Source of the DNA: a virus
Virus record (IMG/VR): IMGVR_UViG_3300003323_000915
Coordinates: 1-64,000 of that record
Reading direction: 5' to 3' (one strand)
DNA: 64,000 nucleotides
The notes beneath the pieces were generated by a model. The model saw only the letters and a program-made list of their open reading frames with translations. It made no database searches and was not told the origin of the DNA. Positions 18,441-51,024 of this stretch are shown one piece after another. The position numbers and the translations under genes are program-made. Every line of letters begins with the position of its first letter. The first letter of the stretch is position 1.

Positions 18441-19244
18441 TTGGAAAATAAATTACTATTCAAGCATTCCTGCTTCTCTGGGGATCTCATCTACGCGATG
18501 GCTGGCATCAAGGCAATCTGTGAGAACAGCGGGCACAAAGCAGTGATTTACCAATGGCTTGATCAAAAAGCGCGTATCTATGACGGCGCCGAGCATCCGT
18601 ACGGAAACTCAATGATGAACCAATACGCGTTCGACATGCTGAAGCCACTGATCGAAGCGCAGCCGTACGTAGAAGCATTTCTTCCATGGCAAGGCGAGAA
18701 GGTGATGGTCGATCTGGACATGCTTCGCCAAGTGAAATCGCACATGCCTTATGGCAATATCGTGACGTGGCTGCCGATGGTGTTCGCGGAAATGCGGCCG
18801 GAGTATTGGAAGCCTTGGATATCATACGATATTTTCAAGGATAATATAAGTCCGAAAGCACAAGTAATGAATAGAATTCTTATTAATCGGACTTCCCGAT
18901 ACCAAGGCGCATGGATTGACTATTTCCATCTCAAAAAATACGAAGGGCAGATGGTGTTCACTGGGACTGAGCAAGAGTACAAAACGTTCAAAGCCGACTG
19001 GAATTTAGACTTGCCTTATCTGGAGCTGAAAGATTTCCATCAGCTTGCCGTGGCAATATCCTCCTGCAAACTTTTCATCGGCAACCAGTCAATGTGCTTC
19101 GCTATCGCAGAGGCATTGAAAGTTCCGCGTCTTTTGGAAGTATGCGACTTCGCGCCGAACGTGCATCCGTGCGGTGATGGTGGATATTACTTCCGCGTGA
19201 CAGAGGTGTTTCAGTATTATGTGGATAAACTGATGTCAGAATGA
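18441..19244 (+). CDS. GT9-like (ADP-heptose:heptosyltransferase-type) glycosyltransferase
   Basis: HS..SGDLIYAM N-terminal motif and CKLFIGNQSMCFAIAEALKVP C-terminal GT-B motif. Confidence 0.7.
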   Translation: MENKLLFKHSCFSGDLIYAMAGIKAICENSGHKAVIYQWLDQKARIYDGAEHPYGNSMMNQYAFDMLKPLIEAQPYVEAFLPWQGEKVMVDLDMLRQVKSHMPYGNIVTWLPMVFAEMRPEYWKPWISYDIFKDNISPKAQVMNRILINRTSRYQGAWIDYFHLKKYEGQMVFTGTEQEYKTFKADWNLDLPYLELKDFHQLAVAISSCKLFIGNQSMCFAIAEALKVPRLLEVCDFAPNVHPCGDGGYYFRVTEVFQYYVDKLMSE

Positions 19245-19558
19245 AAAAGAATACCAAGCAACAAATTGACCACTTACGAATAGCCCTCAGCATGACAGGT
19301 CTGGCAGTTAATAATCCTACCTGTGATTTAATCTTGACGGTACAATCAGAGATGAAGCGCCTAGGTGAAAAATACTCGCTGCGTGATGCCGCCGCTGTTG
19401 AGGTGTTTATTGAAAATAAGTATAAACCGAAAACCGAAGATAAAAATGAACAAGAAAGTATTCTACATGCCCGGCGAAGAACTGACGGAAGAAGAAAAGA
19501 AAATTGCTTCCGAGACACTCAAGCAACAACAGGAGAAAACCCAAAAGGAACTTGCTGA
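19241..19558 (+). CDS. Hypothetical protein
   Basis: ATGA-coupled to the upstream GT; 3' end overlaps the GroES-like gene. Confidence 0.5.
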   Translation: MKKNTKQQIDHLRIALSMTGLAVNNPTCDLILTVQSEMKRLGEKYSLRDAAAVEVFIENKYKPKTEDKNEQESILHARRRTDGRRKENCFRDTQATTGENPKGTC

Positions 19559-19886
19559 TCGCGCCGACGCAACGGCACAAAAAAAATCCACTGTCGATTT
19601 CATGAACGTGAATTTTGAGCCGTTCGAAGATCGTATTCTTGTTTATCCTGATCCGGTGGAGGCAACAACGAAGGGAGGCCTTTACAAGCCTGATGCTGTT
19701 ATCGAGAAAGCAAAGCCAGTGACCGGAACTGTTGTTAAAGTCGGCCCTGGTAAACCAAACTTCAAACTCAACATCGTTCCTGGTGATAGGATATCGTACG
19801 GGAATTATGCTGGCACATCCATACAATTCGGTGAGATAAATTATCTGATCATGCGGTTCGCTGACTGTTTCGGGAAGGTATCATGA
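19446..19886 (+). CDS. groES: Co-chaperonin GroES with N-terminal extension
   Basis: FEPFEDRILV..TTKGGLYKPD..GTVVKVGPGK..PGDRISYGNYAGT; likely start MNKKVFY at 19446. Confidence 0.85.
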   Translation: MNKKVFYMPGEELTEEEKKIASETLKQQQEKTQKELADRADATAQKKSTVDFMNVNFEPFEDRILVYPDPVEATTKGGLYKPDAVIEKAKPVTGTVVKVGPGKPNFKLNIVPGDRISYGNYAGTSIQFGEINYLIMRFADCFGKVS

Positions 19887-21325
19887 TTGAACTACCGAAA
19901 GTAACGCTCATAGCTATAACCACGCGTGATTACGGATCAACCGTGATGGCTCTTAAGAAGAGCCTTGAGCACATCAAGCCAGCAGACGTAATTTTATTCA
20001 CAGACATCGCATTCGAAGATCCAGATTACCGGTGCGTGCTGGTCTCAAAAATGAACTGGGATGATTATAATCGGTTCGTCTGCACCGAATTATACAAGCA
20101 CATCAACACCGAATACATCCTTCTGATTCAACATGATGGGTGGGTGCTCGATGGGGATCAATGGACCGATGACTTCCTGAACTACGACTACATCGGAGCG
20201 CCGTGGCTTTACAAGGACACCAGAAATGTCGGCAACGGCGGCTTCTCTCTGAGATCTCGCAGGCTACACGAAATACTGGCTACCGACAAGCTAATTAACG
20301 ACAATGACGTCTATTCACCGGAAGATGAGGTCATCTGTCGATTATATCGTAGTTACCTTGAGAAGAACTACGCGATCCGTTTTGCGCCAGAAGAGCTCGC
20401 GCATCAATTCAGTTTTGAATGTCATGCGCCGAAAAGAAAAACGTTTGGATTCCATAATTTCTTCCATGAACCATTCAAAGAATTTGTTATTCTGAAGAGG
20501 TCACACGCCATGGGTGACATCATTATGATGGAGCCTGTGATGGAGTACTTTCACAACAAAGGATATCGTGTCGTGCTCGATGTTCAACCAGAGTATTTCC
20601 ATCTTTTCCAATACCATCATTATCCTGTTCTGCACATCTCGCAGCTTCCATCAACTGATGGAATACGCTCTATCAATCTTGACATGTCGTACGAGGTAAA
20701 GCCAAAGCAGTTGGTTTTGAGGTCGTACTACGAGACATGCGGAATTACCGATGGAGTCCTGCGCAACTCGGTTCTGAATTTTCCAGTCGACGATACAACG
20801 CGTCTTTTCAAAAAATACATTGTGTTGCACGTGGATGACACTGGCGTACCTCAACGCGACGGATCGCGAAAGGACGGCATTCCCCATCGCGATGTGCATG
20901 GAGTTAACTGGGAGCTTGTGATTACATCCCTTGAGGACATGGGATACACAGTCATACAGGTTGGTGGCCGAGATGATGGCCGGGTGAAGATGAATACGTC
21001 TACGAAGAACATGCTAATGTACCTGATCGCCGGAGCTGACTTTTTTATAGGCGTTGATAGCGGGCCAAGTCAAATTGCTGTGAGTTTAGGAATTCGATCA
21101 ATCATTTTCTTCGGCTCAGTGAATCCTGCATTCCGTTATCGTGATATGAGTAAAATTCGGGTGATACAAAACCATTGTGATAAGGCCGGGTGCTACCACT
21201 CTGTGCTCAGCGTTCGCGGTATTGATTGTGTGTACAATGAAAAGAAGCCACCATGCATTACGCATACCACGTATTCCGTGCAAGAACAAATAAAGCAACA
21301 CATTAAATCTTTCGAAAATGAGTGA
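19883..21325 (+). CDS. Fused DUF5672 (GT-A-like) + GT9 heptosyltransferase-like protein
   Basis: N: IQHDGWV..WTDDFLNYDYIGAPW..VGNGGFSLRS; C: AMGDIIM, FFIGVDSGPSQIAVSLG, four-Cys tail. Confidence 0.8.
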   Translation: MIELPKVTLIAITTRDYGSTVMALKKSLEHIKPADVILFTDIAFEDPDYRCVLVSKMNWDDYNRFVCTELYKHINTEYILLIQHDGWVLDGDQWTDDFLNYDYIGAPWLYKDTRNVGNGGFSLRSRRLHEILATDKLINDNDVYSPEDEVICRLYRSYLEKNYAIRFAPEELAHQFSFECHAPKRKTFGFHNFFHEPFKEFVILKRSHAMGDIIMMEPVMEYFHNKGYRVVLDVQPEYFHLFQYHHYPVLHISQLPSTDGIRSINLDMSYEVKPKQLVLRSYYETCGITDGVLRNSVLNFPVDDTTRLFKKYIVLHVDDTGVPQRDGSRKDGIPHRDVHGVNWELVITSLEDMGYTVIQVGGRDDGRVKMNTSTKNMLMYLIAGADFFIGVDSGPSQIAVSLGIRSIIFFGSVNPAFRYRDMSKIRVIQNHCDKAGCYHSVLSVRGIDCVYNEKKPPCITHTTYSVQEQIKQHIKSFENE

Positions 21326-21842
21326 ACAAAAACAATACATGAGTGAAGCGGCTAAGGTGAGAGATTTGCCAAACGTGATGAAGTATATTACCGGAAGGGT
21401 TGCTGACATTGGAGCTGGGCATGATCCGATCACACCAGATTGTATTGCTTTTGATGGTCGTGATTTGTCAACAATCACTGTGCCTGGTGAGATTTTTATT
21501 ACCGATGCCCATGGCATGTTTGATACAATTTTTTCATCTCACTTTCTTGAGCATGTCCCGAATCCAATTAATTACATTTACAATTGGCATCGTCATTTAA
21601 ACGTTGGAGGTCATGTAGTACTCTATCTGCCAGAAAAAAGTTACTATAATAACCACGATAATCCAGAGCATATGTTCAATTGGTCATTCGATGATTTTAT
21701 GTTTTGGATAAGAAGGTCGGTTTGTGGTGACGGTAAAGATTTTAAAGGAAATCAGGTTCCAGCCTTGTTTAGTGTCATTGACTCAGGCCTTGATGTTGGT
21801 TATGACAAATATTCGTTTTATGTAATCCTAAGAAAATTATAA
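21318..21842 (+). CDS. Class I SAM-dependent methyltransferase
   Basis: ADIGAG motif I, FDTIFSSHFLEH, LNVGGHVVLYLP. Confidence 0.85.
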   Translation: MSEQKQYMSEAAKVRDLPNVMKYITGRVADIGAGHDPITPDCIAFDGRDLSTITVPGEIFITDAHGMFDTIFSSHFLEHVPNPINYIYNWHRHLNVGGHVVLYLPEKSYYNNHDNPEHMFNWSFDDFMFWIRRSVCGDGKDFKGNQVPALFSVIDSGLDVGYDKYSFYVILRKL

Positions 21843-21845
21843 TTT

Positions 21846-22736
21846 ATGCCAACACTCGGAGGAAGCACATTCGTCTACAACGCCATCGCGCAAGACTACA
21901 ATATCATTGAAACACTGAACTGCCTGTACGACATCTGTGACGAGGTGAGTGTGGCAATGGGCGGTGACGATGGGACAATTGAACTAATCTGTTCTTGGAT
22001 TAAAGAGGCAACACTGAAGTCGTCAAAGCCAATTATATCGCAAATAATTTCCGAATCAGAATGGAATGAACAACAAGGCCGCGAGAAGCTTTCTTATTTT
22101 TCAAATGTAGCAATTGGTAATTTAACGACTGACTACAACCTGTACGTTCAAGCGGACGAAGTTGTAAGTGAACAATGCATGCCATTCATCCGCCAGGCGA
22201 TCGAGACCGGCAAGGAGGCATTCATGCTCACCAGAATAAACTGCTGGCAATCGGCTTACACGATGCTTGCTGTGGCACAGGATCGTAAGCCTTGCAGCAC
22301 AGAGGTGATTCGTCTTACCAAGACAAAATACCGATGCGTGGATGATGCTGAGTCGCTGGGTGTGCCGGAGGTATCGTTCGAGTTCACACCGCATATCCGG
22401 ATATACCATGTTGGATTTGTGCGCGACAAGGATAAGCATTTGACTAAGATCTTGCACATGCAAGAGAAAGTGTTCTTATGGGAAGTAGATAAACGCATAC
22501 ACAACAACACCGATGGTTTTGACTGCTGGAAGTGGGGGTTCGATCATCGAGATGTTATGCCGATAAAAGAAAAGCTGCCGAAGTACATCCGGCAGTGGGC
22601 ACAAGAAAGACTGGTTCCTCCGTTCAACGATTCCCCTGAAGGAAAAGAGTACGCGAAAGAATGGGTTAAATACGCGTATCCGGGTCAGGAGTATTCTGAA
22701 GATTTGTGGTGGCGATGGGCGAAGAAGTACCAGTGA
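21846..22736 (+). CDS. GT-A / GT2-like glycosyltransferase
   Basis: GGDDGT, YVQADEVV (DxD-like), IYHVGFVR. Confidence 0.7.
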   Translation: MPTLGGSTFVYNAIAQDYNIIETLNCLYDICDEVSVAMGGDDGTIELICSWIKEATLKSSKPIISQIISESEWNEQQGREKLSYFSNVAIGNLTTDYNLYVQADEVVSEQCMPFIRQAIETGKEAFMLTRINCWQSAYTMLAVAQDRKPCSTEVIRLTKTKYRCVDDAESLGVPEVSFEFTPHIRIYHVGFVRDKDKHLTKILHMQEKVFLWEVDKRIHNNTDGFDCWKWGFDHRDVMPIKEKLPKYIRQWAQERLVPPFNDSPEGKEYAKEWVKYAYPGQEYSEDLWWRWAKKYQ

Positions 22737-22911
22737 TATCTTCGTCATGTTCAAGACTTTGAATAACATCAACAAGTGATTCGAATTGACTATAGTCTTC
22801 TTCCGGATCTGTCGGATTAAAAATGATCTGAATCACGCTCGCTGTGGAGAAATGTTTTATCGACACATGCTTTCCTGTTATCTCTGCAAAATTGATGTTT
22901 TTCCAACTCAT
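22666..22911 (-). CDS. Hypothetical protein
   Basis: ATGA-coupled to 22908; overlaps the GT 3' end tail-to-tail. Confidence 0.4.
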   Translation of the reverse strand: MSWKNINFAEITGKHVSIKHFSTASVIQIIFNPTDPEEDYSQFESLVDVIQSLEHDEDITGTSSPIATTNLQNTPDPDTRI

Positions 22912-23210
22912 ATGTTTGACATTATTAAACTTAAACAGGCAGCTTTTGCTGATGTGTACTGAATGTCAGTCGCCCACCATGTATTGAAAATCCATTCACT
23001 AAACGATCTCTCAATATCCATCTCCGCCGGCAAATCCATATCGCTGTTTACACTCTGCGTATGATTCAAGGTGGCGTCCATCGCTTCATCATCGTACCAT
23101 GAATTCGATACAAATCGGACATACGATGCGTCATCAGGAATAATGATCACACCTGGCTTTTGATCATTGACGTTTCTCCTTAAAAATGTTTTTCCGTCTC
23201 GTGTTATCAT
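22908..23210 (-). CDS. Hypothetical protein
   Basis: Likely start MITRDGK at 23210 after an A-rich leader. Confidence 0.5.
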   Translation of the reverse strand: MITRDGKTFLRRNVNDQKPGVIIIPDDASYVRFVSNSWYDDEAMDATLNHTQSVNSDMDLPAEMDIERSFSEWIFNTWWATDIQYTSAKAACLSLIMSNI

Positions 23211-23364
23211 GGCATTGTTTTTTTTAAATAAAAGATAGGGCTTACATGCAGCACAACCCGGGACCACTCCCTTTTTTTAGACTGCAATGCCTATGTCTTT
23301 GATGTCGATTAGTAAGATTTTTTTGTTCTTTAATGATGTATTTTGAGTTGATCTCCTAAGTTAG

Positions 23365-24532
23365 ATAATTTTCTCATATCAGAAATATTTTGGTATATTT
23401 ATACTGTGAAGTTGATATTGAAAATTAAACTTTTGCCAACTGACGAACAGGCTAACTTGCTTATCAATACCATGAAGCAAGCCAATACTGTTTGTAATGC
23501 CATCTCTGATGTGGCTTGGCAAGAAAAGATTTTCAATAACCTTAAACTGCATCACAAAGTTTACCATTATTACAAAAGAAACTTTCAACTTTCTTCCCAA
23601 ATGCTTATTAGGCAAATAGCTAAAGTTGCTGATGCCTATAAGTTGGATAAGAAAACTAAACGCACTTTTAAGCCACTTGGTAGTATTGCTTATGATAGTA
23701 GGATAATGACCTACAAATCCAACAATGTAGTTTCCTTGTGGTGTATTGGTGGTAGAGAAAAGATTAACTTTGTTTGTCATAACCCTTCTTATATTCCTTA
23801 CATTAAAGGGGAAGCTGATTTGGTTTACAAGAAACGTAAGTTTTACCTTTTCCAAACTGTTGATGTTCCCGAAGAAGATGTTGATGATATAGAAGAATTT
23901 ATTGGTTGCGATTTTGGTATAAACTCGATTGTAACTACTTCTGATGGTGTTGAGCATTCTGCTGATGGGCTTAACGCATACCGTGAACATCGGCAAAGGG
24001 TTCGGAGTTCTATTCAAAGCAAAGGCACACGCAATTCTCGCAAGTTGTTGAAACGGCTTTCTGGCAAAGAAAGGACTCACGCTTCCATTGTTAATCACAC
24101 TATTGCAAAATTCATTGTTCAATCTGCTAAAGAGCAAGGTATGGGAATCGCTTTGGAGGACCTTACTGGCATTCGATTTACGAGCAAAAAGAGAAACAAA
24201 AAGTTTCGCACGAAACTTGGTAAATGGAATTTTTCTATGCTTAGACAGTATATTGAATACAAGGCGTTGCTTAATGGTGTGAAAGTCATAGCTATTGCTC
24301 CTGCATATACTTCTCAGACTTGCAGTATTTGCAAACACATTGGAAGACGAAATAATAAGCACTTTAAGTGCAACAACTGCGGAAATGATATGGATGCCGA
24401 TGTTAACGCATCGCTGAATATCGCTACGCTTGGGCGTGCCGTAAATCACGCTGGAAGATGGAATGATATGTGCTGTACTGTGCATTCGTTTGCGTCTAAA
24501 AACCACCGATATTTAGTTGGTGGGTAGTTTAC
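23365..24532 (+). mobile_element. Solo tnpB element without tnpA (left end approximate)
   Basis: Right-end hairpin CCACCGA-TATTTAG-TTGGTGG then GTAGTTTAC ending at 24532; more AT-rich than flanks; no tnpA in window. Confidence 0.65.
23406..24527 (+). CDS. tnpB: IS200/IS605-family RNA-guided endonuclease TnpB
   Basis: RuvC-I GCDFGI, RuvC-II ALEDL, YTSQTCSIC..CNNC zinc finger, RuvC-III DADVNASLNI. Confidence 0.95.
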   Translation: MKLILKIKLLPTDEQANLLINTMKQANTVCNAISDVAWQEKIFNNLKLHHKVYHYYKRNFQLSSQMLIRQIAKVADAYKLDKKTKRTFKPLGSIAYDSRIMTYKSNNVVSLWCIGGREKINFVCHNPSYIPYIKGEADLVYKKRKFYLFQTVDVPEEDVDDIEEFIGCDFGINSIVTTSDGVEHSADGLNAYREHRQRVRSSIQSKGTRNSRKLLKRLSGKERTHASIVNHTIAKFIVQSAKEQGMGIALEDLTGIRFTSKKRNKKFRTKLGKWNFSMLRQYIEYKALLNGVKVIAIAPAYTSQTCSICKHIGRRNNKHFKCNNCGNDMDADVNASLNIATLGRAVNHAGRWNDMCCTVHSFASKNHRYLVGG

Positions 24533-24557
24533 TTTAAAACATCATGAATACTATTTG

Positions 24558-25271
24558 TCAAAATTTCTTTATCACATACCCCACGCCAATCGTCGGCTGC
24601 ACTTGATCTGTCCAGGGCCGCCCATACATAAACGGCAGGTAGCTTACACCGATAAACACGCCCCATCGCTTATCGCGGATATTGTCAACCAGTACGTTCG
24701 TAGTGCCGGTGATCCTTGAGTTCCTGTTGCTGAATATCGTGGTGCTGTAATATTTCTCTGTGCCAAACATCCATTTCTTCTTCACCGATATAACTGTCTT
24801 TGCCGTGTCCAGGTAATCATAGTCATAATGTGCGTGCAGTGAGTCATACACCTTGGCGCGGAATGATAGATAACCATCTGAGACCTTCAAGTTCAAATAG
24901 GATCTGTTCACTCCGGCGCTGTCGGTATAATGGTAGTGGTTGACGGTGGTGTTGCCTTCGCCATGCGCGGAGAATTGGTTTGATATATAGGCGCGCATGT
25001 CTTTAAATTTTATATCGAATTGCTTATTGAGATCATCGACTATTTTCGGATACGCCTGAGCGATCTGTTTTGTCTGCAAAATGGCCGCATCTTTCTCAGC
25101 AACAGTTTGTCCGAGTTTGTTGGTATGGTATTTTATGATTGCGTCTTTCTCGATGGCAGAAGACATAAGATCCTCTGCTTCGTGTTGCTTTTTCTGTAGC
25201 CTGTCGAACAGGAATAACGCAAGTAACACAAGTCCTGTGATGATAGCGATGTAGGTGAGGTGGATTTTCAT
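24558..25271 (-). CDS. Rz-like/spanin-type membrane-anchored protein
   Basis: N-terminal TM, coiled coil, C-terminal beta-strands ending IGVGYVIKKF. Confidence 0.55.
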   Translation of the reverse strand: MKIHLTYIAIITGLVLLALFLFDRLQKKQHEAEDLMSSAIEKDAIIKYHTNKLGQTVAEKDAAILQTKQIAQAYPKIVDDLNKQFDIKFKDMRAYISNQFSAHGEGNTTVNHYHYTDSAGVNRSYLNLKVSDGYLSFRAKVYDSLHAHYDYDYLDTAKTVISVKKKWMFGTEKYYSTTIFSNRNSRITGTTNVLVDNIRDKRWGVFIGVSYLPFMYGRPWTDQVQPTIGVGYVIKKF

Positions 25272-25296
25272 GTGAATAAGGTTAGTAAAAAGGATC

Positions 25297-27152: not shown

Positions 27153-27322
27153 TTTGATTTTATAAAACTAATGTTCGCAGACCTCATTTTCGGAGAGGAT
27201 ATTTTCATGGCGTATTCGATGATATATAGTGCCCGCACGTCAGGGTCACTTACCTTGCCTTTGGTTTTTATGTCTATTCTCATATCTTTTAACTTTTTTC
27301 TTTGTTCAATTCCTGATGACGT

Positions 27323-27901
27323 TTAAAGATGACTTTCGATTAAATGCACCAGCACATGAATAACTTTAATGTGCACCTCCTGTATCCTGGCAGCATGTCC
27401 AAAATATGGAACAACAATCGCTACGTCCGTGGGCTTGAGTAAGTCCATGATCGACCCGCCTTGATTGCCAGTCAAAAATACGACTTTCATTTCTTTGAAG
27501 TGGGCAGCACGCACAGCAGTGAACACGTTCTCCGACAGCCCGCTTGTGCTGATGGCTAGCAGTAAGTCTCCAGGCTTCCCATGCGCCATTATCCAGCGAG
27601 CAAACACCGCGGCGTAGCTGTAGTCATTACTCACACAAGTCAAGTGCCCAGGATCTGATATAGCGATAGCCTCGATAGGGTCACGGTCTCTGTAATACCT
27701 GCCGGTTAGCTCGCTGGCGAAGTGCATTGCGTCACTCATAGATCCACCGTTGCCGCAGGAAATTATTTTCTTGCCAGACTTTATGGCCGTGATCATCGCT
27801 GTTGCTGCAAGTTCTATTGCAAGCAGATTGTCCGGGTCGTTGGTGAATCGCTGTAGGACTACCTGCGCTTCTTCGAGTTCGGATTGGATGGTGGGTGTCA
27901 T
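27323..27901 (-). CDS. gmhA: D-sedoheptulose-7-phosphate isomerase
   Basis: KIISCGNGGSMSDAMHFASELTGRY, TCVSNDY, AISTSGLSENV, ARIQEVHIKVIH; closely follows enterobacterial GmhA. Confidence 0.95.
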   Translation of the reverse strand: MTPTIQSELEEAQVVLQRFTNDPDNLLAIELAATAMITAIKSGKKIISCGNGGSMSDAMHFASELTGRYYRDRDPIEAIAISDPGHLTCVSNDYSYAAVFARWIMAHGKPGDLLLAISTSGLSENVFTAVRAAHFKEMKVVFLTGNQGGSIMDLLKPTDVAIVVPYFGHAARIQEVHIKVIHVLVHLIESHL

Positions 27902-29043: not shown

Positions 29044-29055
29044 GGTTTTATTGGT

Positions 29056-30588: not shown

Positions 30589-30589
30589 A

Positions 30590-33256: not shown

Positions 33257-33850
33257 TTATGTAACTATCTGTTTAACAGATTTATTATTTTTCATTATAC
33301 CATGGTGTTTTAGAAGTTTATATACCACGGGGATACAGATTTCGCATTCCTCGGCGATGGCGGCAATGGTGGCCTTTGCGTAATACATTTCAATTGCCTT
33401 ACTGGCTAATTCCTCATTATCAAAAACAGACTTTCGTCCCAATTTGACTCCAATTCTCTTTTTATGTGCGAGGGCATTTTTCGTCCGTTCGCTTATCATA
33501 TTCCTTTCGAATTCCGCGAACACGCCGGCGATCTGGAAAGCCATGCGGCCAATGGCGGTGGTGGTGTCGAAATTGTCGGAGATCGAAATAAAGGTAGCTT
33601 TACGCTTGTCGAATTCGTTTATCAACTCTAATAGATGGCGCAATGATCGGCCTAGCCTGTCAAGCTTTTGAACAACAACAACGTCCCCCGGCTGAAGATC
33701 AGATAAAAGCCTCTCGAGATCTTCACGCTCAGTCTTGGTGCCGGATATTTTCTCTTGGTAGATGATCTCACAGCCGTATGTGGTCAGCGCGTGAACTTGG
33801 CGACCAAGGTCTTGTTCGGTTGTAGATACTCGTGCGTAACCTCGTTTCAT
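33257..33850 (-). CDS. Small serine recombinase (resolvase/invertase) with C-terminal HTH
   Basis: GYARVST..Q, EKISG, GDVVVVQKLDRLGRS, AEFERNMISERT; start MKRGY at 33850. Confidence 0.95.
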   Translation of the reverse strand: MKRGYARVSTTEQDLGRQVHALTTYGCEIIYQEKISGTKTEREDLERLLSDLQPGDVVVVQKLDRLGRSLRHLLELINEFDKRKATFISISDNFDTTTAIGRMAFQIAGVFAEFERNMISERTKNALAHKKRIGVKLGRKSVFDNEELASKAIEMYYAKATIAAIAEECEICIPVVYKLLKHHGIMKNNKSVKQIVT

Positions 33851-33852
33851 GG

Positions 33853-35319
33853 TTATCCGCAAATTATCCAGTAGATCCAAAAACCAAAACACAACGAAAG
33901 GAAGAACACCACAACTATTGCCACGAGGCAAAAAACACCCTTCCACCATAGGTCAATTTCGTCCTCATGTTTTTTTATTGTGATCGTCTTTCCAATAAAG
34001 TAAGGAACGAACACGAACGCCGCAATAATTGCGGGATACATCAGGCTAATCCAAATCCGGTATGTCATTTTCATCTTGGGTATACTGTGAGGGATCTTTA
34101 ACAAATCGGAAGATAATCTCTAAGACTATCGCGATCACGATGATGACGTATAGCGCGGCTGCCATCAGTGATAAGCCGGACATGATACGTAAACCTTATT
34201 CAGGTGTTTGCGGTGGAATTTATTGCCACCGACATTTGAATGCTCGATTGAATTGCAACGTGTGGTTGCGATCAATAGGAGAATGATGAGTAGTGTTTTC
34301 ATTGGTTTGGGAGGTTAGACTCCAACATTTCAGTTAATTGCTTTTCAAATACTTTAAGCTCGCCGACAACAGCCGACATATTGCCGGTGCCAAGTCCGCG
34401 ATCGTGGACTAATTTCAATGCAGTTATAGCCGCCTGAACTTCAATAATGGCTAACAACTTTTCGTGTGCGGGTGATTTGCTTGTGATGCGATCCATATTT
34501 TTACCCCGGTTTAAAGTGTACCGGAAACCTTTCTGTGAATTGATGTTCAAATATACGTAGACAGTAACAAATGTTACTAATCTAGTGTAGAAATATCTTG
34601 TAAGTAATTGACAGTGAGAGAGAAAATTTTTAGCGTCCGTCGAGATTTTTCAGCTCAGCGAAGTTGGAATAGTATTCAAAGTATTCCTGAAATTGATCTG
34701 TAGTAAGCTGCAACCCGGGTTGCATGGACTCAATAGCGAGGGTCAATAAAGGCATGAAATGAGCACCGCCGGTTTTGCCTTGAGCGGCTAAGCGGTTCGC
34801 GATGTGGTCGCGGACTTGAATGAGATCAGGATGGCTGTTGGTGTGATCTATGAGTTGTTGGATTATTGGGGACATATGATTAGGTTAAGCTGTGGCGCGG
34901 TATGTTGGTATTTCTGAAAGAGTAACAGCCGGTTGGATGTGACCAATACGATTTTTACTCATTGGATACTTCTCACTTACAAGCTCCAAAGCCTTTAAAT
35001 ATGACTCCAGTGCCTTAACTCCTAAATCGGAAATGCCGATTGCCGTAGAACCAGGTACCCTCAAATACTCGTAAGATCCAATAAAGCCCTTTGTCAAAAG
35101 CCCATGGCAATAACCGTGCATTTTCCTGATCTCTCTGTTATTGTTGGTGATATTCTCAAGAAATGCCTGCCGACTTACAACATTGCGCTCAATAGTGCCC
35201 AAATAATGGTTTAAACAACTCAAAAGCCAAAGTTCTTGTTTGTTGATCTTGAAGATTTTAAACACCTCGAATGAGGCCTTTTTGTAGATAAAATCGTGCT
35301 GGCAAGGATCTATCAACAT
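33853..35319 (-). CDS. Small hypothetical genes (33853 membrane protein, 34299, 34630, 34885 winged-helix-like)
   Basis: Co-oriented ORFs; 34885..35319 has an LLTKGFI..ISDLG wHTH-like pattern. Confidence 0.5.
34564..34577. promoter_or_regulatory. Palindrome copy 3, GTAACA-AA-TGTTAC (opposite orientation)
   Basis: Exact sequence; minus-strand TATATTTG box at 34548-34555. Confidence 0.7.
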
Positions 35320-41912: not shown

Positions 41913-41960
41913 ATTCGCAATTTTAAAACATTAACAAATTTTACTATTTTTACGAGACTT

Positions 41961-42203
41961 ATGGCAAAGACTAAAGCGAGCAAGCAACCTCAAATTATAT
42001 CACTCCGGTACCTTTGTGAAAAGGCGGATGTAAAACACTACAAGGTTTACAACAATCTTCGCGGTGAATACTCATCCCTTTCCCATGATGAGAAAGCGAA
42101 GCTTGCAAATACTTTATTCGATGAGGTGACTCCATTTTTGAATGGTCTCGGTTATTACATCACCATTGCCAGGATCAAAGATCCAGTTCCAAAGCAGAAG
42201 TAG
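41961..42203 (+). CDS. Putative HTH (XRE-like) regulator
   Basis: ISLRYLCEKADVKHYKVYNNLRG; isolated on the opposite strand. Confidence 0.5.
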   Translation: MAKTKASKQPQIISLRYLCEKADVKHYKVYNNLRGEYSSLSHDEKAKLANTLFDEVTPFLNGLGYYITIARIKDPVPKQK

Positions 42204-42931: not shown

Positions 42932-43111
42932 GTCTGTCGTTTGATGTCACAATTATAGGAATAAAAAGATTATCAAAAAAATTCCTGAAAGAATTTTCAA
43001 AATATTTTACGAAAAATTTTGTGAATCGAAATATTCTGTTTTGCTTTGTATCCACATTAATCGACAGAAGCTGTCAGAAACTAACTGTTACTTTTATGAA
43101 AAAATAAAATT

Positions 43112-43957: not shown

Positions 43958-45087
43958 TGGAAGAGTTCATCAACCTTGTCCTTCAGATGCGTAACGCGCA
44001 GAAAGAATATTTCTTGGCACGTAAGAAAAAAGACGACCGCAAGTCAGCAATTGCTCTCGTCGACAGTAAGAGCTTTGAGCGACAGGTTGATGACTTCATC
44101 GAGAAGTACAAATCGGACAAAAGACAAGCTAAACTTTTTTGATATGCACTTCGAAAACGCATCCAAGGAGTCATGGGTATTATGGCAAAACTCAATGGAT
44201 AATGAAGACGAGATGCCAGGAGAGCCAGCACTTCTTATTGAGAAATACAACGATATTATATCGATTCGTCAGGAAGACCGCTACATCAACATTAATCTCG
44301 AAATGATCGATGAATTGTGTAAGCGATTGAAGCAGATCAACAAAGGTTCGTTATAACCTACAGAGAGGCGTTACTTAAACTTTATAACTCATGAACATTC
44401 ATGATAAGATAAAAGCTGGCGACGATGGTAAATGGCATGTCAGATTTGAACACACTACTATAGATAAGAATGAACGCAATTTTGGCACAGGTACTACAAT
44501 ATTTTGGCAAACATACCAAAGTGGTTGGGATGCTGTTGAAGGGCTGATTAAATATTGCACAGATAAAGACATTCATTTTTCTGATTTCGACCGCGAAGCT
44601 TGGTCTAGATACTACTCAGATTATGACAAGTTATTAAGCAGGCAGTCAACAATGCAGGAGATGTTGCACGCATTGAAGGATTGCTATATGACGATGTACG
44701 GCGGTAACTCTATAAATATCGAAGACGCTATTCGTAGAGCCAAACATGCAGATGATTTTGAGAACAGGATTATTTCAGTGATTAAAAAAGCAACAGAATG
44801 ACCACCACAGACGAATAATACAAAACATGACAAACAAAAAATATTTTAAGATCGCATTTACCATTATCCTGACATTTTCAGCGATAATTATGATGTCATT
44901 TGTTGCTGATAGCATGCATGAATTTCTTGGAGACTGGCATTGTAATGGTGCGGGATGTCATTCTGGATCTGGCGCGCATGATGCAACGTGGCATTGGGGA
45001 TGGCGGCACTGGATGTTTTTTACATGTGGCTTTTGCCTCTTTATTTTAAATGTTGTTCGTGTTATAATAATTGCAGACGAAAAATGA
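43957..45087 (+). CDS. Small hypothetical genes (43957, ~44143, 44391, 44827 membrane protein)
   Basis: Co-oriented, closely spaced ORFs. Confidence 0.5.
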
Positions 45088-45302
45088 TCAACAAAAAATT
45101 CACCGACAGCACCACTGTACGAGAAGCTTGGTATTACCCTGAGAACAAAGAACTCATTGTTGAGTTCACAACAGGGAAGCGTTACAGCTACGCTGGCGTG
45201 CCTGAAGAAATCTGGAACGGATTTATTTCGGCCGCATCCGCTGGAGTTTACCTATCAAATAAAGTTAAAGGTCAGTATCCGTATAAACTTGTAACAGAAT
45301 GA
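45084..45302 (+). CDS. KTSC-domain protein
   Basis: STTVREAWYYPENKELIVEF..YSYAGVP..AASAGVYLSNKVKG. Confidence 0.85.
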   Translation: MINKKFTDSTTVREAWYYPENKELIVEFTTGKRYSYAGVPEEIWNGFISAASAGVYLSNKVKGQYPYKLVTE

Positions 45303-45582
45303 TGAGCGATCAACAGGCAGCTGCGATGGAGTTCATTAAGCCAGGCTCTAGTGTGCCCTTTGAGATCAAGATGGATATATTCGCAAAAATATGCAATGAT
45401 ACTAAACGAGCAAGCTTTTACATTACCAAAAATGTAAGAACTCGCAAGTGGAGAATCCATTTAAGCGGCATCCATAAGGATTTTATAGGAACTGACCTTG
45501 TAGCATTGCTTGATGAAGCTGGTCAGTATGTTGTTGATAACACAAAAGAATCAGAATCACATAATATTTTAATGCCACAAAA

Positions 45583-46806
45583 ATGATCGAAGAAATAACT
45601 CTCCCCGTAAAACTCGAACCGATCCTGAAGCAAATCCAGGATAACGTTCCGTCCATGATCAAAGGCCGCGACGCGGCAGTTGGCGCGATGGAGAAAATCG
45701 TTGATGTGAACGACGATAACATTGAAGAAGCAAATAAATTATTAATCCGGGTTGACGCCACGTATCAGAAGATATACAACATCCGAACAGGAATCACTAA
45801 GTCTTTCGATGATGCCAAGGAATTTCTAATGCAGTTCGAAAAAGATCTTAGTAAGGATAGCAAGTCGAATCATGTACACCGAATCAGGTCTCTTATCGGT
45901 GCACATAATCAGAAAAAAATCGACGAAAATAAGCGCGTTCAGGAGCAAGCACGCATCCAGAAGGGAAAAGAAAACTATAAAGCGGAAATTATCGCTCGGA
46001 TAAAGAAAAATCTCGCCGACATGGTCATCGAGCGCGTGCGAAAAGTACAGGATGGCAGCCGGGATTACTTCAACGCATGCACACTTGATGATTTTGATAA
46101 GCGTGCGCAGGTTTTTAAGAGCAATCAGCCAAAATTGAAGACTGAAGAGTGGTCAAAATGCTTCATGACTGAGATAAACAAGTCTTTGATCACTGATGAA
46201 GCGTACGCTGAGCTTTGTCTTGAGCTTCAAAAAGAAGAGACGTACGAAAAATGGAATGAAACTGTGATCACAGCCATCATGCCGAAAATAAACGAGTGGA
46301 TCGGGCGAATTCCGGAACTTAAAGACAAGCTTATTGCACTGAAAAACGCTTCCGATGAAGAAGCGAAGAAGAAATTACTTGCAGAACAGGAGACGAAGGC
46401 AAAAAAAGAAGATGAAGAACGTCAGCTTGAGCTCAACGAGATGAAAAAATTGAGCGACGAACAAATTGAGCGCGACAAAGAGGTTGAAAAGCTACAAAAC
46501 GACTTCCGTGAGCAAGCTGTGACGCAAAAACTGGAAGATGCCGGTCCGGTGAAGCTGCTTTTGAAGTTTAAAGACGAAAAACCAGTGAAGGCGATCACTG
46601 AAATGGTGTATCACTGCTTCATGAACGAAAAATTCCCACCGATACAGAAAAAGAACAAGGCCGGCGAGCTTCAATTTGACGAGCACGGATTCCCGATTTA
46701 CGTGGACTGGGTTGATACGCTTGTGAAGTTTTTTGTGAAGTATTGTGACACTGGAATCAACGGAATTGAGCTTAAGGAAGTGTCACGTGTAATCGTTCGA
46801 AAATGA
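45583..46806 (+). CDS. Coiled-coil protein of the recombination module
   Basis: 407 aa, E/K-rich helical; between RecT and the nuclease. Confidence 0.55.
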   Translation: MIEEITLPVKLEPILKQIQDNVPSMIKGRDAAVGAMEKIVDVNDDNIEEANKLLIRVDATYQKIYNIRTGITKSFDDAKEFLMQFEKDLSKDSKSNHVHRIRSLIGAHNQKKIDENKRVQEQARIQKGKENYKAEIIARIKKNLADMVIERVRKVQDGSRDYFNACTLDDFDKRAQVFKSNQPKLKTEEWSKCFMTEINKSLITDEAYAELCLELQKEETYEKWNETVITAIMPKINEWIGRIPELKDKLIALKNASDEEAKKKLLAEQETKAKKEDEERQLELNEMKKLSDEQIERDKEVEKLQNDFREQAVTQKLEDAGPVKLLLKFKDEKPVKAITEMVYHCFMNEKFPPIQKKNKAGELQFDEHGFPIYVDWVDTLVKFFVKYCDTGINGIELKEVSRVIVRK

Positions 46807-47019
46807 TAACCAATGACACCACGGAACTTATCGACACTCATAGATATGAATTGGAATATGTATACGATAAGGATGTATGGACCGTACCTGTTGTACTAAC
46901 CACTGAAAGAAGAGAAAAGATGTTAAATGACAATTCAATAAGCAGGGTTAGGTTTACCCCTATTTTGAGGTATGACGGACTTTTAAGTTTTACGTTTAAT
47001 CACGCTGATTTAGTGTAAA

Positions 47020-47616
47020 ATGACCTACTTCGATCATCAATACGTATCCAACTCCGATCTTAAGGCTATCATCCACAAGACAGAACAGGTACGTGCTGAG
47101 CCGGAGAATTTGAAGGATATTTTTGAAGCCGGAACGCTAAATCACCACGCGCTTCTTGAGCCACATAAGGCAGACAAAACTCACATTGGATATGTGACGG
47201 CAAAGCGAATGGCAGATACGGTTTTGCGAGATGAGATGTGCCGAAAGCTGATAATGATGCCCGACTTTCGTAGAGAGCACGAATGGTACAAGAAAGATAT
47301 TTTCGGTTTAGAAGGAGCCAGGTGTAAGACAGATGGAGATAGCAGAATGATGTCTACCATCTTCGAGTACAAGGGGCTTTCAATCACAACCGAAAATGGA
47401 TTTGACAGCGCGATTGAAAATCATGACTACGACCAGTCGGCGTTTTTTTACTTGAACGTTGTAGGATATAAAAATTACCTCATAGTAGGGGTATCTAAGA
47501 AGTCTCCTGATAAATTATTCAAGAGACTCATCGATCGTGATCATCGATGGTATTCATCCGGCGGAATAAAGACCGAGAAGGCGATTAAAGCTTGGAAAAA
47601 TTTTGGATTTGTTTAA
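47020..47616 (+). CDS. PD-(D/E)XK exonuclease (RecE/ExoVIII C-terminal-like)
   Basis: VSNSDLK, GTLNH, RCKTDG..FEYK, YDQSAFFY. Confidence 0.8.
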   Translation: MTYFDHQYVSNSDLKAIIHKTEQVRAEPENLKDIFEAGTLNHHALLEPHKADKTHIGYVTAKRMADTVLRDEMCRKLIMMPDFRREHEWYKKDIFGLEGARCKTDGDSRMMSTIFEYKGLSITTENGFDSAIENHDYDQSAFFYLNVVGYKNYLIVGVSKKSPDKLFKRLIDRDHRWYSSGGIKTEKAIKAWKNFGFV

Positions 47617-47628
47617 AAAATAAAAACT

Positions 47629-48027
47629 ATGAGTTTAGGAATTGGGGCAATGCTGCATTCACTTGGTGGAGGATCAGCACATTCACCAAATGAATACTAC
47701 GGAAAAGAAATCAGTGATATCAAAATGGATGATAAGTCTTTGTTTATTGACTTCACCAATTGTGTAAAGATAAGAATATTCGATGATGGACAATCGTGCT
47801 GCGAATCAAGATATATGAGAACTGATGACGATATGAGGTCATTGATTGGCAAGACGCTTGTTTCTATTGAAACTAAAGATGCGCCTGACATCGAGGATGA
47901 ATACGGAGTACACCAAGTAGTTTTTCTTGAAATAAGAACCAACGATGGATGGATTACAATATCAAACCACAATGAACATAATGGTTATTATGGTGGATTT
48001 GGACTTTCAATTGAAGAAATAAAATAA
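47629..48027 (+). CDS. Conserved phage protein
   Basis: QSCCE..HNEHNGYYGG motif. Confidence 0.6.
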   Translation: MSLGIGAMLHSLGGGSAHSPNEYYGKEISDIKMDDKSLFIDFTNCVKIRIFDDGQSCCESRYMRTDDDMRSLIGKTLVSIETKDAPDIEDEYGVHQVVFLEIRTNDGWITISNHNEHNGYYGGFGLSIEEIK

Positions 48028-48032
48028 AAAAT

Positions 48033-48311
48033 ATGATAACACTGAAAATTGATGTAATGAAGATTGACAAGACCAAGCTGTTCGAAGGAAAGAATGGCGC
48101 AAAGTACCTTGATCTTGTTATAATGGATAGTAAGAATGACAAATACGGTAACGACTACATGGTTGTTCAGGCTGTCAGTAAAGAAGACCAGGAGAAAGGT
48201 GTAAGAGGAAACATTCTTGGCAACGGCAAAAATGTTGGGACGAAGTCAAGCGGACAATCGTCAGAACAATCATCAAGCAGTAGTTCAAACATTGATGAAT
48301 TGCCATTCTGA
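48033..48311 (+). CDS. Putative single-stranded DNA-binding protein
   Basis: KIDVMKIDK..GAKYLDL..ILGNGK, S-rich linker, DELPF tail. Confidence 0.7.
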   Translation: MITLKIDVMKIDKTKLFEGKNGAKYLDLVIMDSKNDKYGNDYMVVQAVSKEDQEKGVRGNILGNGKNVGTKSSGQSSEQSSSSSSNIDELPF

Positions 48312-48314
48312 CCT

Positions 48315-48734
48315 ATGACAGTATTCTGCGCAGGAACATTCGATTTACTTCATGTCGGACACATCAATCTGCTTTTGTTCTGCCGGCAACAAGCCGGGCA
48401 CAACGGAAAAGTGATTATGTCGATCGATTCGGACAAGAAAATAAAAAAAGACAAAGGTGATGATCGTCCGATATTCAAGTACACTGACCGATTACTTGCG
48501 CTTGAGTCCATCAGATTAAATAATCTTCGTGTTGTTGATTTGGTGATTGAGCACCCAAGTAATGAATACTTGCTTGATTCAATCAAGCTATACAAACCGG
48601 ATGCTATAGTCGTTGGTGGAGATTACCAGGACAAAGAAGTGATCGGTAGTGGCGTATCAAAAGTTATTTACTATCCGCGAGATTACCGGTTCTCGTCCTC
48701 CGGAATCATTGAAGCAATAAAACGAAAACTATGA
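48315..48734 (+). CDS. Heptose-1-phosphate nucleotidyltransferase (HldE/RfaE domain II, HldC-like)
   Basis: GTFDLLHVGH (HxGH), DSD..KGDDRPI, KPDAIVVGGDY, SSS..I. Confidence 0.85.
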   Translation: MTVFCAGTFDLLHVGHINLLLFCRQQAGHNGKVIMSIDSDKKIKKDKGDDRPIFKYTDRLLALESIRLNNLRVVDLVIEHPSNEYLLDSIKLYKPDAIVVGGDYQDKEVIGSGVSKVIYYPRDYRFSSSGIIEAIKRKL

Positions 48735-49600
48735 TCTTCCAAGAACTACTCGAAAAAGCGCCGAAGTTGAAGATCGCCGTAATCGGTGATTACATTATCG
48801 ACAAATATATTTTCGGATCAGTTGACAGGATCAGCCCGGAGGCTCCCGTGCCCGTAGTTGTACCGAACAGGACATTCACTCGGCCTGGCGGTGCTGGTAA
48901 TGTTGTAAAAAATCTTCTCAACATCGGAGTCGATGCATATCTGTTTACCACCGGAGATCGGTTCCATGAACTTCCACGGGATGTCGTATTTTATCACCCA
49001 GGAGAATTTCCGAAAAAAACGCGAGTGATATCCGGCACGCATCACTTACTTAGGATGGACGAGGAATCTGTATTTGATGTGGTGTACGATGACGTGCTTT
49101 GGAAAGAAGATTTTGAGGTGATATTGAGATCACTCGATGCTGTTGTTTTTTCCGACTACCACAAAGGAGTAATCAACCCAACTGTGTCGAATACGATCAT
49201 AGCCATGTGCAACGAGAAGGGGATACCTGTGATTGTGGATGCTAAGAAAGATTTTGACAAGTACACGAATGCGACGATATTGAAATGCAATCAGAAGGAG
49301 GCACAGAATATCAATCCGATAATCGAGCGATCGAATCTGTGCCTAAATTATTTTGTGGTGACATGTGGCGAAAATGGCATTTCATGGTTTACCGACTCCG
49401 GTAATGGAGTTGATGGCATCCCGGTAGACATTGTTGACGTCTGTGGTGCCGGCGACACCGTGACAGCCATACTCGCAGCATCATACGCAGCTGGATTCAA
49501 TATCCAGAAATCAATTACACTCGCCAATATTGCTGCCGCTGAGACATGCAAGCATATTGGGGTATATCCGATAACGAAAGAAGACTTATTAAGATTATGA
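48731..49600 (+). CDS. Heptose-7-phosphate kinase (HldE/RfaE domain I, HldA-like)
   Basis: VIGDYIIDKYIFGSVDRISPEAPVPVV, PGGAGNV, SDYHKG, DVCGAGDTV. Confidence 0.92.
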   Translation: MIFQELLEKAPKLKIAVIGDYIIDKYIFGSVDRISPEAPVPVVVPNRTFTRPGGAGNVVKNLLNIGVDAYLFTTGDRFHELPRDVVFYHPGEFPKKTRVISGTHHLLRMDEESVFDVVYDDVLWKEDFEVILRSLDAVVFSDYHKGVINPTVSNTIIAMCNEKGIPVIVDAKKDFDKYTNATILKCNQKEAQNINPIIERSNLCLNYFVVTCGENGISWFTDSGNGVDGIPVDIVDVCGAGDTVTAILAASYAAGFNIQKSITLANIAAAETCKHIGVYPITKEDLLRL

Positions 49601-49921
49601 GCCATTACAGCATTTTCAAGGAAGGCGATCATGTTGAAGTTAATTCATGGCACACAAAAATTTATTTGAAAGGGATTCATGGCAAGTTTAACTCTGTAAG
49701 TTTTGAAAAGGTATGAAATACACTCTTGTGACGCATCAATTTTCGCTTTTCGACTACAACGAAATGCGTCCAAAAGTGAAGGTGCCACTTAAGCGCATCA
49801 GTAAGGAACGCATGGAGCAGGCGATGATCGAGCATAAAAAAGGAAAAGACGGGAAACTTCTGAATGTGCTGCGCGACATAAACGATTCACTTGAACGATA
49901 CTGTAATAATAAAAATATAAA

Positions 49922-50656
49922 ATGAAGATAACGAAGGCGCGAATAGTAAGTAAATCGGTAATTGAATTTGATCCAATATTTAAAGATGAATTTTCAATAC
50001 CTTTTGTTCCACAGGCGTATTTGCAAGGGAGCGGTATCTATAAAATAGTGAATATTTTTACAGGTGAGATCTATGTAGGTGCTACCAAGAATTTTTACAG
50101 GAGACTTATGTCCCACAAGAGTTCAATAGTATCAGGGCACACTAAAAGTAAAAAACTAACAGAGGCCGCTAAAAAATATGGCATACATAATTTCAATTTT
50201 GTAATTATAGAACACACAGAGTTGCGCAATCTGTCTGAACGTGAACAATTCTACATAGATTTATTAAAACCACAGTATAACGTAGCTGTGCCTGGAGCCA
50301 CTAAAAGTGAAGAAACAATAGAAAAGATCAGAAGATCTATTTCGGGCATCAAGCATCCGGCATGGAGAAATGAGATAAAAAGAATTGCGCAAACAGGGAT
50401 TAAGACATCACCACGATCTGAGATTGGAAAGATTAACATGTCCAACGCTCAGAAAAAATTGCATAGTAGCGGCTACAAAAGCCCAAGATCAAAAGCTGTA
50501 TTACAATATGATCAATCTGGAAATTTTATCCGAGAATACTATAGTGCGTCAGAAGCCGGTAGACATATTGGCGTTACTGGTGATGCGGTGACTGCGAATG
50601 CAACAGGCAGAAATAGGACATGTCAAGGGTTTGTATTTAAATACAAAATACAATGA
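49922..50656 (+). CDS. GIY-YIG homing endonuclease with NUMOD-type DNA-binding repeats
   Basis: SGIYKI..IYVGAT..R, EREQFYID..YN, VLQYDQSGNFIREYYSASEA. Confidence 0.9.
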   Translation: MKITKARIVSKSVIEFDPIFKDEFSIPFVPQAYLQGSGIYKIVNIFTGEIYVGATKNFYRRLMSHKSSIVSGHTKSKKLTEAAKKYGIHNFNFVIIEHTELRNLSEREQFYIDLLKPQYNVAVPGATKSEETIEKIRRSISGIKHPAWRNEIKRIAQTGIKTSPRSEIGKINMSNAQKKLHSSGYKSPRSKAVLQYDQSGNFIREYYSASEAGRHIGVTGDAVTANATGRNRTCQGFVFKYKIQ

Positions 50657-51024
50657 AAATAGCTATTGATGTAGATAGTACGATCGTGTTTAACCAGTAT
50701 CCGTATTTCGGTGACTCAGTCCCAAATGTCGAAAAAGTATTAAAGCGAATTATTACTGCCGGACATGAAATAATAATTCTGACAATGAGAGATGGCAGAT
50801 TGCTGGACGATGCAGTTGAATGGTTTTTAAAGAATAGCATACCAGTTAAGTACATTAATTGCAACCCAGAGTTTGAGACTGGATCAAGAAAGGTGTACGC
50901 AAATCTATACATCGATGACCATAATCTCGGCATTCCACTTATTCATAACTACGAAGTACATCCAAAACCATTCGTTGACTGGCTTGCAGTTGAAAAAATA
51001 TTGGAAGCAAAAGGATATTTATGA
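50653..51024 (+). CDS. Capless HAD-superfamily phosphatase
   Basis: IAIDVDSTIV (DxD), ILTMR, RKVYANLYIDD. Confidence 0.85.
   Translation: MKIAIDVDSTIVFNQYPYFGDSVPNVEKVLKRIITAGHEIIILTMRDGRLLDDAVEWFLKNSIPVKYINCNPEFETGSRKVYANLYIDDHNLGIPLIHNYEVHPKPFVDWLAVEKILEAKGYL

Follow-up and report, generated by a model that had tools for sequence, protein, structure and literature searches.

We analysed the first 64 kb (positions 1 to 64,000, referred to here as the window) of the virus record IMGVR_UViG_3300003323_000915. Two groups of genes in the window may belong to one system: genes predicted to make a nucleotide-activated heptose (NDP-heptose) and a glycosyltransferase (GT) operon. The whole IMG/VR record has 77,248 bp and was rated complete by CheckV. 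The window also encodes terminase, portal and virion proteins, a primase/helicase, a helicase, a nuclease and RecT. A megablast search with 24 kb against 50,697 phage records returned zero matches, and no isolate phage is close at the DNA level. Part of the region was present in one root-metagenome DNA run, possibly the source sample; RNA runs were absent from the listing. The heptose and GT genes listed in a preliminary description of this DNA were each found as an intact open reading frame (ORF) in its listed place. They lie in loci 5-26 kb apart in this genome and on different strands.

Heptose and glycosyltransferase genes

The gene at 27323-27901 on the minus strand encodes GmhA, a sedoheptulose-7-phosphate isomerase of the SIS fold. 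This assignment is based on hidden Markov models (HMMs), PDB relatives and conserved motifs. The protein matched NF001628 (9e-69, 231 bits; equivalog cut-off 265) and TIGR00441 (6e-55, 185.5 bits; equivalog cut-off 209), whereas the paralogue DiaA scored only 8e-37. Among PDB relatives, Vibrio GmhA (3e-58) and E. coli GmhA (8e-56) came first, with DiaA far behind (2e-32). In an alignment to 1x94, the blocks GNGGS...DAMHFA.ELTGRY, STSG.S and RIQEVHIK.IH were identical; we take the E, H and Q residues to be catalytic or metal residues. Full-length similarity is clearly greater than to DiaA and the phosphate-binding S-x-S-G-x-S loop is kept, which places the protein in the GmhA family. The gene is ATGA-coupled within an array of small early-type genes.

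The remaining pathway genes lie in a second array, on the plus strand. Here a nucleotidyltransferase (NTase; 48315-48734) is followed by a kinase (48731-49600). The preliminary description had read these genes as an HldE split in two; both ORFs are real and the ATGA overlap between them was confirmed, as were the overlaps that were said to couple the precursor genes in general. The kinase is a heptose-7-phosphate kinase of the pfkB type (HldA / HldE domain I). It is similar over its full length to this family, scores well above other pfkB kinases (TIGR02198 rfaE_dom_I, 1e-63, 215 bits, cut-off 345; ribokinase only 2e-9) and carries the GAGD anion-hole motif, within a DVCGAGD stretch that is invariant across four phages. 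Its sole match in a PDB search was the heptose-7-phosphate kinase HldA, 4e84 (1.5e-28).

The NTase is a small HldC-like enzyme of the cytidylyltransferase fold, in which the HxGH motif is present as HVGH. Its best match was TIGR02199 rfaE_dom_II (2e-20), slightly ahead of TagD/glycerol-3-phosphate cytidylyltransferase (4e-15). We read it as a sugar-1-phosphate NTase for which heptose-1-phosphate is a candidate substrate, assigned from gene context. Its C-terminal motif R-D-Y-R-F-S-S-S aligned to R-T-E-G-I-S-T-T of TagD. We considered whether the enzyme is of the STTR5 type, which predicts promiscuity for CTP and UTP (PMC11573728), and rejected this because F-S-S-S replaces R-S-T-T, so that F, not R, precedes SSS.

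The fourth gene (50653-51024, plus strand) encodes a capless mini-HAD phosphatase of 123 amino acids (aa). It matched the BT0820 family model NF046079 (4e-20, 72.7 bits; cut-off 165), the PDB entry 2obb (1e-14) and phrog_1238 (1.5e-27). PHROGs labels the last of these 'phosphoheptose isomerase', which is apparently a mislabel. Motif I is present as D-V-D-S-T (DxDxT), as is a D-D motif. Because no GmhB model matched at E < 0.01, we class the protein as one that works like GmhB, not as a member of that family. It is a candidate, judged from its sequence and setting, for the heptose-1,7-bisphosphate 7-phosphatase in place of GmhB. A literature search returned nothing on BT0820. The phosphatase had been placed in the kinase operon; it does lie in the same array, but a 70-aa ORF and a GIY-YIG endonuclease gene stand between the two.

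These enzymes follow the same four-step logic as the bacterial heptose route, and GmhA, the pfkB-type kinase and the cytidylyltransferase-type NTase come from the same families. The phage route differs from the bacterial one in several respects. Its kinase and NTase are separate and the NTase comes first, its phosphatase is of the BT0820 type and not GmhB, and its genes are spread over two loci. It also has no HldD: as had been noted for the window, no epimerase is visible, and the entire 77 kb contain no SDR epimerase (PF01370). From established knowledge of the pathway, we infer that the product would be NDP-D-glycero-D-manno-heptose (the D,D form).

The GT operon occupies 18441-22736 on the plus strand, beside the structural module. 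Its first gene (18441-19244) has a TTG start and encodes a compact GT-B glycosyltransferase of 267 aa, assigned as GT9-like from its predicted fold only. This protein matched nothing in Pfam, NCBIfam or PHROG, and PDB sequence and profile searches gave only noise. Its AlphaFold2 (AF2) model has a predicted local distance difference test score (pLDDT) of 91.2, and the top Foldseek matches were all GT9: 3tov, WaaF and WaaC (TMq 0.68). G14-D15, the probable catalytic base, is invariant. N215-Q216-S217 is invariant in all homologues, where it replaces the GT9 donor motif D-S/T-G. With no match to PF01075 or NCBIfam and no D-S/T-G, the protein did not qualify for CAZy GT9; we regard it as GT9-like by its modelled structure and not as a demonstrated member.

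Two observations concern the ends of this gene. The public gene call (P0001, 248 aa) begins 19 residues downstream and loses the invariant G14-D15; the longer TTG-start form is backed by homologues. A 105-aa ORF (19241-19558, plus strand) is ATGA-coupled to the stop of the gene and overlaps the 5' part of the following Cpn10 gene by about 190 nucleotides in another frame.

The central protein of the operon (19883-21325, plus strand) is a fusion of an N-terminal GT-A domain (DUF5672) and a C-terminal GT9 domain, recognized by Pfam and in its AF2 model (pLDDT 86.9). DUF5672, on which the literature search found nothing related, matched at 6e-22; PF01075 matched weakly, with 27.1 bits, but above its cut-off of 22. 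A GT-A fold like those of GT6, GT8 and A64R of the chlorovirus PBCV-1 (Z about 12) spans residues 4-195. Residues 198-480 best matched TibC, a protein O-heptosyltransferase of the TibC/AAH type, the bacterial autotransporter heptosyltransferases or BAHT (Z 21.6, rmsd 2.9, 261 aa aligned), followed by other GT9 enzymes at Z 18.6-20 (3tov and WaaF at 20, WaaC at 18.8). TibC was also the first match (0.0027) of a profile built from 31 homologues. Residues G211-D212, D392-S393-G394, C432, C437, H439, C449 and C458 are invariant, and G211-D212 lies where WaaC and TibC have their catalytic Asp. The score for PF01075 above gathering, the fold, G-D and D-S-G assign this protein to CAZy GT9, with its donor specificity predicted only.

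The comparison with TibC shows both shared and divergent features. In TibC the catalytic Asp follows a Gly at the start of the N-lobe; the same is true of the fusion GT, which also keeps the equivalent of T226. TibC has an iron finger with four Cys (C339, C342, C358 and C370) and uses ADP-D,D-heptose (PMC4358343), and this donor is the product predicted for the phage pathway. The Cys/His cluster of the fusion GT lies in the iron-finger region, as judged from the stretch aligned to TibC 95-393 and not at the level of single residues, and its spacing differs. The N-terminal beta-barrel of TibC and the BAHT family was not found; the fusion GT has its GT-A domain there. Enzymes of this family form dodecameric rings and heptosylate serines of beta-helices. 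At the stereoselectivity site, TibC has P-S-G and the fusion GT has D-S-G, and W305 and R286 are not conserved in the fusion GT.

A SAM-dependent methyltransferase gene (21318-21842, plus strand; PF13489 1e-8, PF08241) overlaps the fusion GT gene by 8 nucleotides. One relative (P0235, 631 aa) has the methyltransferase and the DUF5672+GT9 protein as a single polypeptide, which supports a functional link between methylation and transfer. The last gene (21846-22736, plus strand) encodes a GT2-like GT-A glycosyltransferase that was recognized only through the ESM Atlas (feature score 0.98; TM 0.74-0.78 to clusters annotated GT2), with no HMM match in Pfam, NCBIfam or PHROG.

The preliminary description had seen two GT9 domains and proposed a heptosylation system. 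Both domains are indeed predicted to fold as GT9, but HMM support exists for the fusion GT alone. The operon also goes further than a heptosylation step, because it encodes four GT domains and a methyltransferase.

Relatives and hosts

Relatives of the fusion GT number in the thousands, typically on contigs of 77-84 kb. Of 78 viral loci, 52 had the 267-aa GT within 6 kb of this gene, 41 had the GT2-like gene and 24 had the methyltransferase. The pathway genes were sought in 40 whole viral records that contain the fusion GT. GmhA, the full-length kinase and the BT0820-type HAD occurred together in three records (G001, G002 and G010) and in none of the other 37. The NTase was found in the same three records and in five records of a distant group, clade B. 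Among the 14 records that are at least 90% complete, each of the four pathway genes was present in 3, and the remaining 11 keep the GTs and have none of the pathway genes.

G001, G002 and G010 each keep all nine genes of the system (38-76% identity; 53-62% for GmhA). The HAD gene follows shortly after the kinase gene in every case, and in G001 the two are direct neighbours. Pathway genes hold syntenic positions in related phages at 38-62% aa identity, which agrees with the suggestion that they are long-term residents.

We built a tree of the fusion GT by a quick method with Shimodaira-Hasegawa-like approximate likelihood ratio test (SH-aLRT) support, excluding G010 (locus L018), where the GT gene is split across contig ends. 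The window grouped with G001, G002 and G022 (clade A; SH-aLRT 99). G022 is a complete genome that lies within clade A and is without all four pathway genes. In a FastTree tree without support values, the 267-aa GT of G022 does not group with the clade-A type; this is a single event and serves as a lead only.

Clade B (13 loci; SH-aLRT 100) carries a divergently transcribed set of NTase, cupin, small ORF and kinase genes beside the same GT pair (for example L019:1319-3265, minus strand). The NTase of this set matched at 1e-27 and its shorter kinase at 1.5e-35. The cupin (121 aa) matches generic cupin models only (about 1e-5), and the next ORF encodes about 96 aa. As a guess, this cupin might stand in for GmhA as a non-orthologous isomerase; the window itself has GmhA and no cupin, and its pathway genes are dispersed. 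In G031, the ORF that separates the kinase and NTase genes gave a weak HAD-like match (G031:C1:5317-5469). Kinase and NTase have thus become associated with the GT pair twice, which supports a functional link. Most phages with the GT pair are without the pathway, which shows that the transferases are independent of a phage-encoded supply. The co-occurrence anticipated for GT9 and heptose genes in relatives therefore holds in part: GmhA, kinase and HAD have identical distributions and clade B adds a second association, but there is no general co-occurrence.

The kinase is far more widespread among viruses than this lineage. More than 539 IMG/VR contigs encode a relative; a single-protein pattern search for it in viral contigs found nothing, and an alignment was needed. 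In 72 of 77 other viral kinase loci that we sampled (L095-L171), the NTase is directly upstream of the kinase. This order is that of the window; in bacterial HldE, the domains come the other way round. GmhA was adjacent in only 3 of the 77 loci and a BT0820-type HAD in none, and among 26 long viral kinase records GmhA appeared in one, as a weak match. Because GmhA is scarce beside viral kinases, the pathway in the window is the rarer version, with a textbook GmhA, of a common viral module.

Functional NDP-heptose enzymes are known from viruses, and the sets tested yield ADP-heptose (Tang et al., Science 2024, via PMC11461863 and PMC11573728). According to these summaries (PMC11461863, PMC11573728), viruses encode the isomerase, kinase and NTase, the phosphatase is absent and the viral role is unsolved. 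Other lists of heptose genes or heptosyltransferases exist for the cyanophage SynMITS9220M01 (PMC7378029), for pelagimyophages (PMC7029224) and for a huge phage (PMC10747093). A viral heptose pathway is thus a known theme, as such enzymes have been published and shown to be active. The window differs from the published viral sets in three ways. Its mini-HAD shares the exact presence pattern of GmhA and kinase, where the published sets have no phosphatase; its NTase is without the STTR5 arginine; and its lineage adds a conserved GT9-like pair. We consider three things new: a candidate viral phosphatase whose phyletic pattern matches those of GmhA and kinase perfectly, the conservation of a GT9-like pair in which HMMs miss one member, and the existence of natural relatives that have the transferases but not the pathway.

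In prokaryote assemblies, full-length relatives of the fusion GT were found only on contigs of about 78 kb that were binned with two metagenome-assembled genomes (MAGs), one of Cyclobacteriaceae and one of Chitinophagaceae. The Cyclobacteriaceae MAG (G067) has GmhA and kinase solely on the phage contig, C497. In the Chitinophagaceae MAG (G068), the phage contig is without GmhA and kinase, and the bacterium's own copies exceed curated cut-offs. For these two binned contigs, the pattern fits a phage that carries the pathway where the host cannot supply heptose. The premise that many Bacteroidota have little heptose proved half true, since, in the likely host family (Cyclobacteriaceae), 34 of 60 other genomes have a strong RfaE-type kinase (at least about 300 bits).

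Proposed use of the heptose

Based on these data, we tentatively propose a model in which the phage makes NDP-heptose and its GT operon puts a heptose-containing glycan on a virion protein. It is the explanation we favour, although we think it somewhat more apt to prove wrong than right. The first part of the model concerns the donor. GmhA would isomerise sedoheptulose-7-phosphate from the host, the pfkB kinase would phosphorylate C1 and the mini-HAD would take off the 7-phosphate, in keeping with the enzyme families found. A pathway of its own may free the phage from dependence on hosts without ADP-heptose.

The second part of our model concerns how the donor is used. The heptose donor would feed the separate GT operon that adjoins the structural genes. 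There, the GT9-like enzyme, the GT-A+GT9 fusion, the methyltransferase and the GT2-like enzyme may build a short, probably methylated, heptose-containing glycan and place it on an acceptor that is available in the cytoplasm.

The final part involves the acceptor. The likeliest would be a virion protein, chiefly the 2131-aa and 447-aa Ser/Thr-rich fibres encoded after the capsid genes. Genes for fibre-type proteins lie beyond the window, at 65483-71878, 72032-73375 and 73391-74872 of the genome, and their products contain 26%, 25% and 20% Ser+Thr compared with a genome mean of 13.5%. Pfam assigned no family to these three Ser/Thr-rich fibres or to a 1928-aa protein. Virion fibres are favoured because TibC is the best structural match of the fusion GT, and heptosylation of a fibre would parallel the action of TibC on the beta-helix of TibA. 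The Cys/His cluster, the position of the operon beside the structural module, the co-chaperonin gene and the fibre-type proteins point the same way as the TibC match. Viruses that glycosylate their virions with their own cytoplasmic GTs include the chlorovirus PBCV-1 (A64R, capsid glycans) and mycobacteriophages (capsid and tail), and giant viruses also have sugar-nucleotide pathways. The GT-A half of the fusion GT resembles A64R-type folds (Z about 11.8), and the GT genes of this phage lie near the structural module. We know of no report of heptose on any virion.

A more specific form of this proposal is that Bacteroidota-associated phages of soil and roots O-heptosylate giant Ser/Thr-rich fibres through a TibC-like metal-finger GT9/GT-A fusion, with self-made NDP-D,D-heptose and with the mini-HAD as the missing viral phosphatase. 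In this full form we would sooner doubt it than accept it.

Several points weigh against fibre heptosylation. The 11 complete relatives without the pathway indicate that the donor need not be heptose or phage-made. On the enzyme side, the NTase has only a moderate score for the heptose family and the HAD does not belong to GmhB; the 267-aa GT is without the GT9 donor motif, and membership in GT9 is no proof of specificity for heptose. The likeness to TibC is also incomplete: the N-terminal beta-barrel is missing, the D-S-G motif is of the lipopolysaccharide (LPS) type where TibC has P-S-G, and TibC is ahead of the LPS heptosyltransferases by just 1.6 Z units. A cellular homologue of the GT9 half, coupled to a methyltransferase, sits in a surface-polysaccharide cluster. 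Ser/Thr-rich composition is usual in phage fibres, and every acceptor considered here is putative. The host pattern comes from two MAGs and depends on binning.

A serious alternative, although we regard it as doubtful, is that the pathway and GTs remodel the host envelope. In such a scheme the enzymes would modify a host glycan (LPS core, capsule or a precursor of exopolysaccharide) at the cytoplasmic face of the inner membrane. The effect could be superinfection exclusion, avoidance of progeny trapping or, if the phage can persist, seroconversion. Among cellular relatives of the GT9 half, the closest one is encoded on a chromosome of Pseudoflavitalea (Chitinophagaceae) and has 33% identity. 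Its gene is translationally coupled to a methyltransferase gene of the same kind, and its neighbours are GT2, GT4, epimerase, FkbM and YfhO genes. The LPS-type D-S-G motif of the fusion GT, and the serine recombinase and RecT of the phage, are consistent with an envelope target, and phage rfaE and GT genes have been read as LPS-related in the literature (PMC7029224, PMC10747093, PMC7378029). However, we recognized no priming transferase, flippase, polymerase or ligase among the window ORFs scanned, the recombinase is of the small resolvase type and not a recognized integrase, and the cell surface turns over slowly compared with the length of a lytic cycle. In addition, the operon adjoins structural genes and holds a co-chaperonin gene, and the fusion GT has TibC as its best structural match.

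It is also conceivable, though improbable, that the two sets of genes have unlinked functions. The heptose genes would then be an auxiliary metabolic module that supplements or diverts the host's metabolism of ADP-heptose or sedoheptulose-7-phosphate, and the GT operon would use ordinary nucleotide sugars of the host. This would account for the GT pair without pathway genes in most relatives and for the distances and different strands that separate the loci. NTase-kinase pairs likewise occur in more than 500 viral contigs, and a fusion GT match lies within 5 kb in only 1 of the 77 sampled. Yet in clade B the kinase and NTase directly adjoin the same GT pair, a heptosyltransferase fold is predicted for both GTs, and the sole clade-A genome without the pathway has a different type of 267-aa GT, the single event noted above from a tree lacking support values.

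DNA, which had also been named as a target, is a very improbable acceptor of heptose on a modified base: although the NTase, kinase and HAD genes lie in a replication/recombination array (RecT, nuclease, helicase) and GT-B enzymes glucosylate T4 DNA, the whole genome has no thymidylate-synthase-like hydroxymethylase, no C5 DNA methyltransferase and no TET/JBP match (a weak blank, as the TET/JBP control was uninformative), and the GTs are nearest to GT9, not to DNA glucosyltransferases.

Whichever acceptor is used, viral NDP-heptose enzymes are known to work, and this phage lineage offers a compact, testable case for the use of the sugar by viruses. It combines a textbook GmhA route with a candidate for the phosphatase reported missing from viruses in published surveys, and its relatives include natural 'knock-outs' that kept the transferases and lost the pathway. 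If fibre O-heptosylation is true, no virion before this one would have been shown to bear heptose, and viral heptose enzymes would have their first physiological role. Virus-made glycan coats would then extend from giant viruses and mycobacteriophages to heptose in phages of Gram-negative bacteria, which would matter for host recognition, for phage engineering and, since ADP-heptose is an agonist of ALPK1, for immune visibility. Should the host envelope be the acceptor instead, the system would represent a new way in which phages remodel the cell surface.

Neighbouring features

A PHROGs search with six uncharacterised neighbour proteins gave zero matches. The palindrome GTAACAWWTGTTAC occurs at 4 sites (18045, 33218, 34564 and 53318), where 0.07 are expected by chance. 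We considered it as a tie between the three loci and rejected this, as the sites are not specifically upstream of heptose or GT genes. The small serine recombinase (33257-33949, minus strand; Resolvase domain, 3e-45) lies in the early region; instead of an integrase, it may be an invertase or a resolvase.

Two homing endonuclease genes lie in the array that holds the NTase, kinase, HAD and helicase genes. The GIY-YIG gene (49922-50656, plus strand; TIGR01453, 4e-29) is not a member of the pathway; it is also ATGA-coupled and is not at this site in G001, G002 or G010. The HNH gene (51242-51772) is ATGA-coupled within the array; among the same three records it was found in G002 only.

The co-chaperonin gene of the GT operon (19365-19886, plus strand) encodes a Cpn10/GroES-domain protein of 173 aa (PF00166, 9.5e-17, residues 84-171). 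It is ATGA-coupled to the fusion GT gene and is conserved in G002 and G010. A second GroES/Cpn10-domain protein, of 248 aa, is encoded divergently from the GT operon at 17284-18030 on the minus strand. Both proteins have long N-terminal extensions, and the presence of two in one 77-kb phage is unusual.

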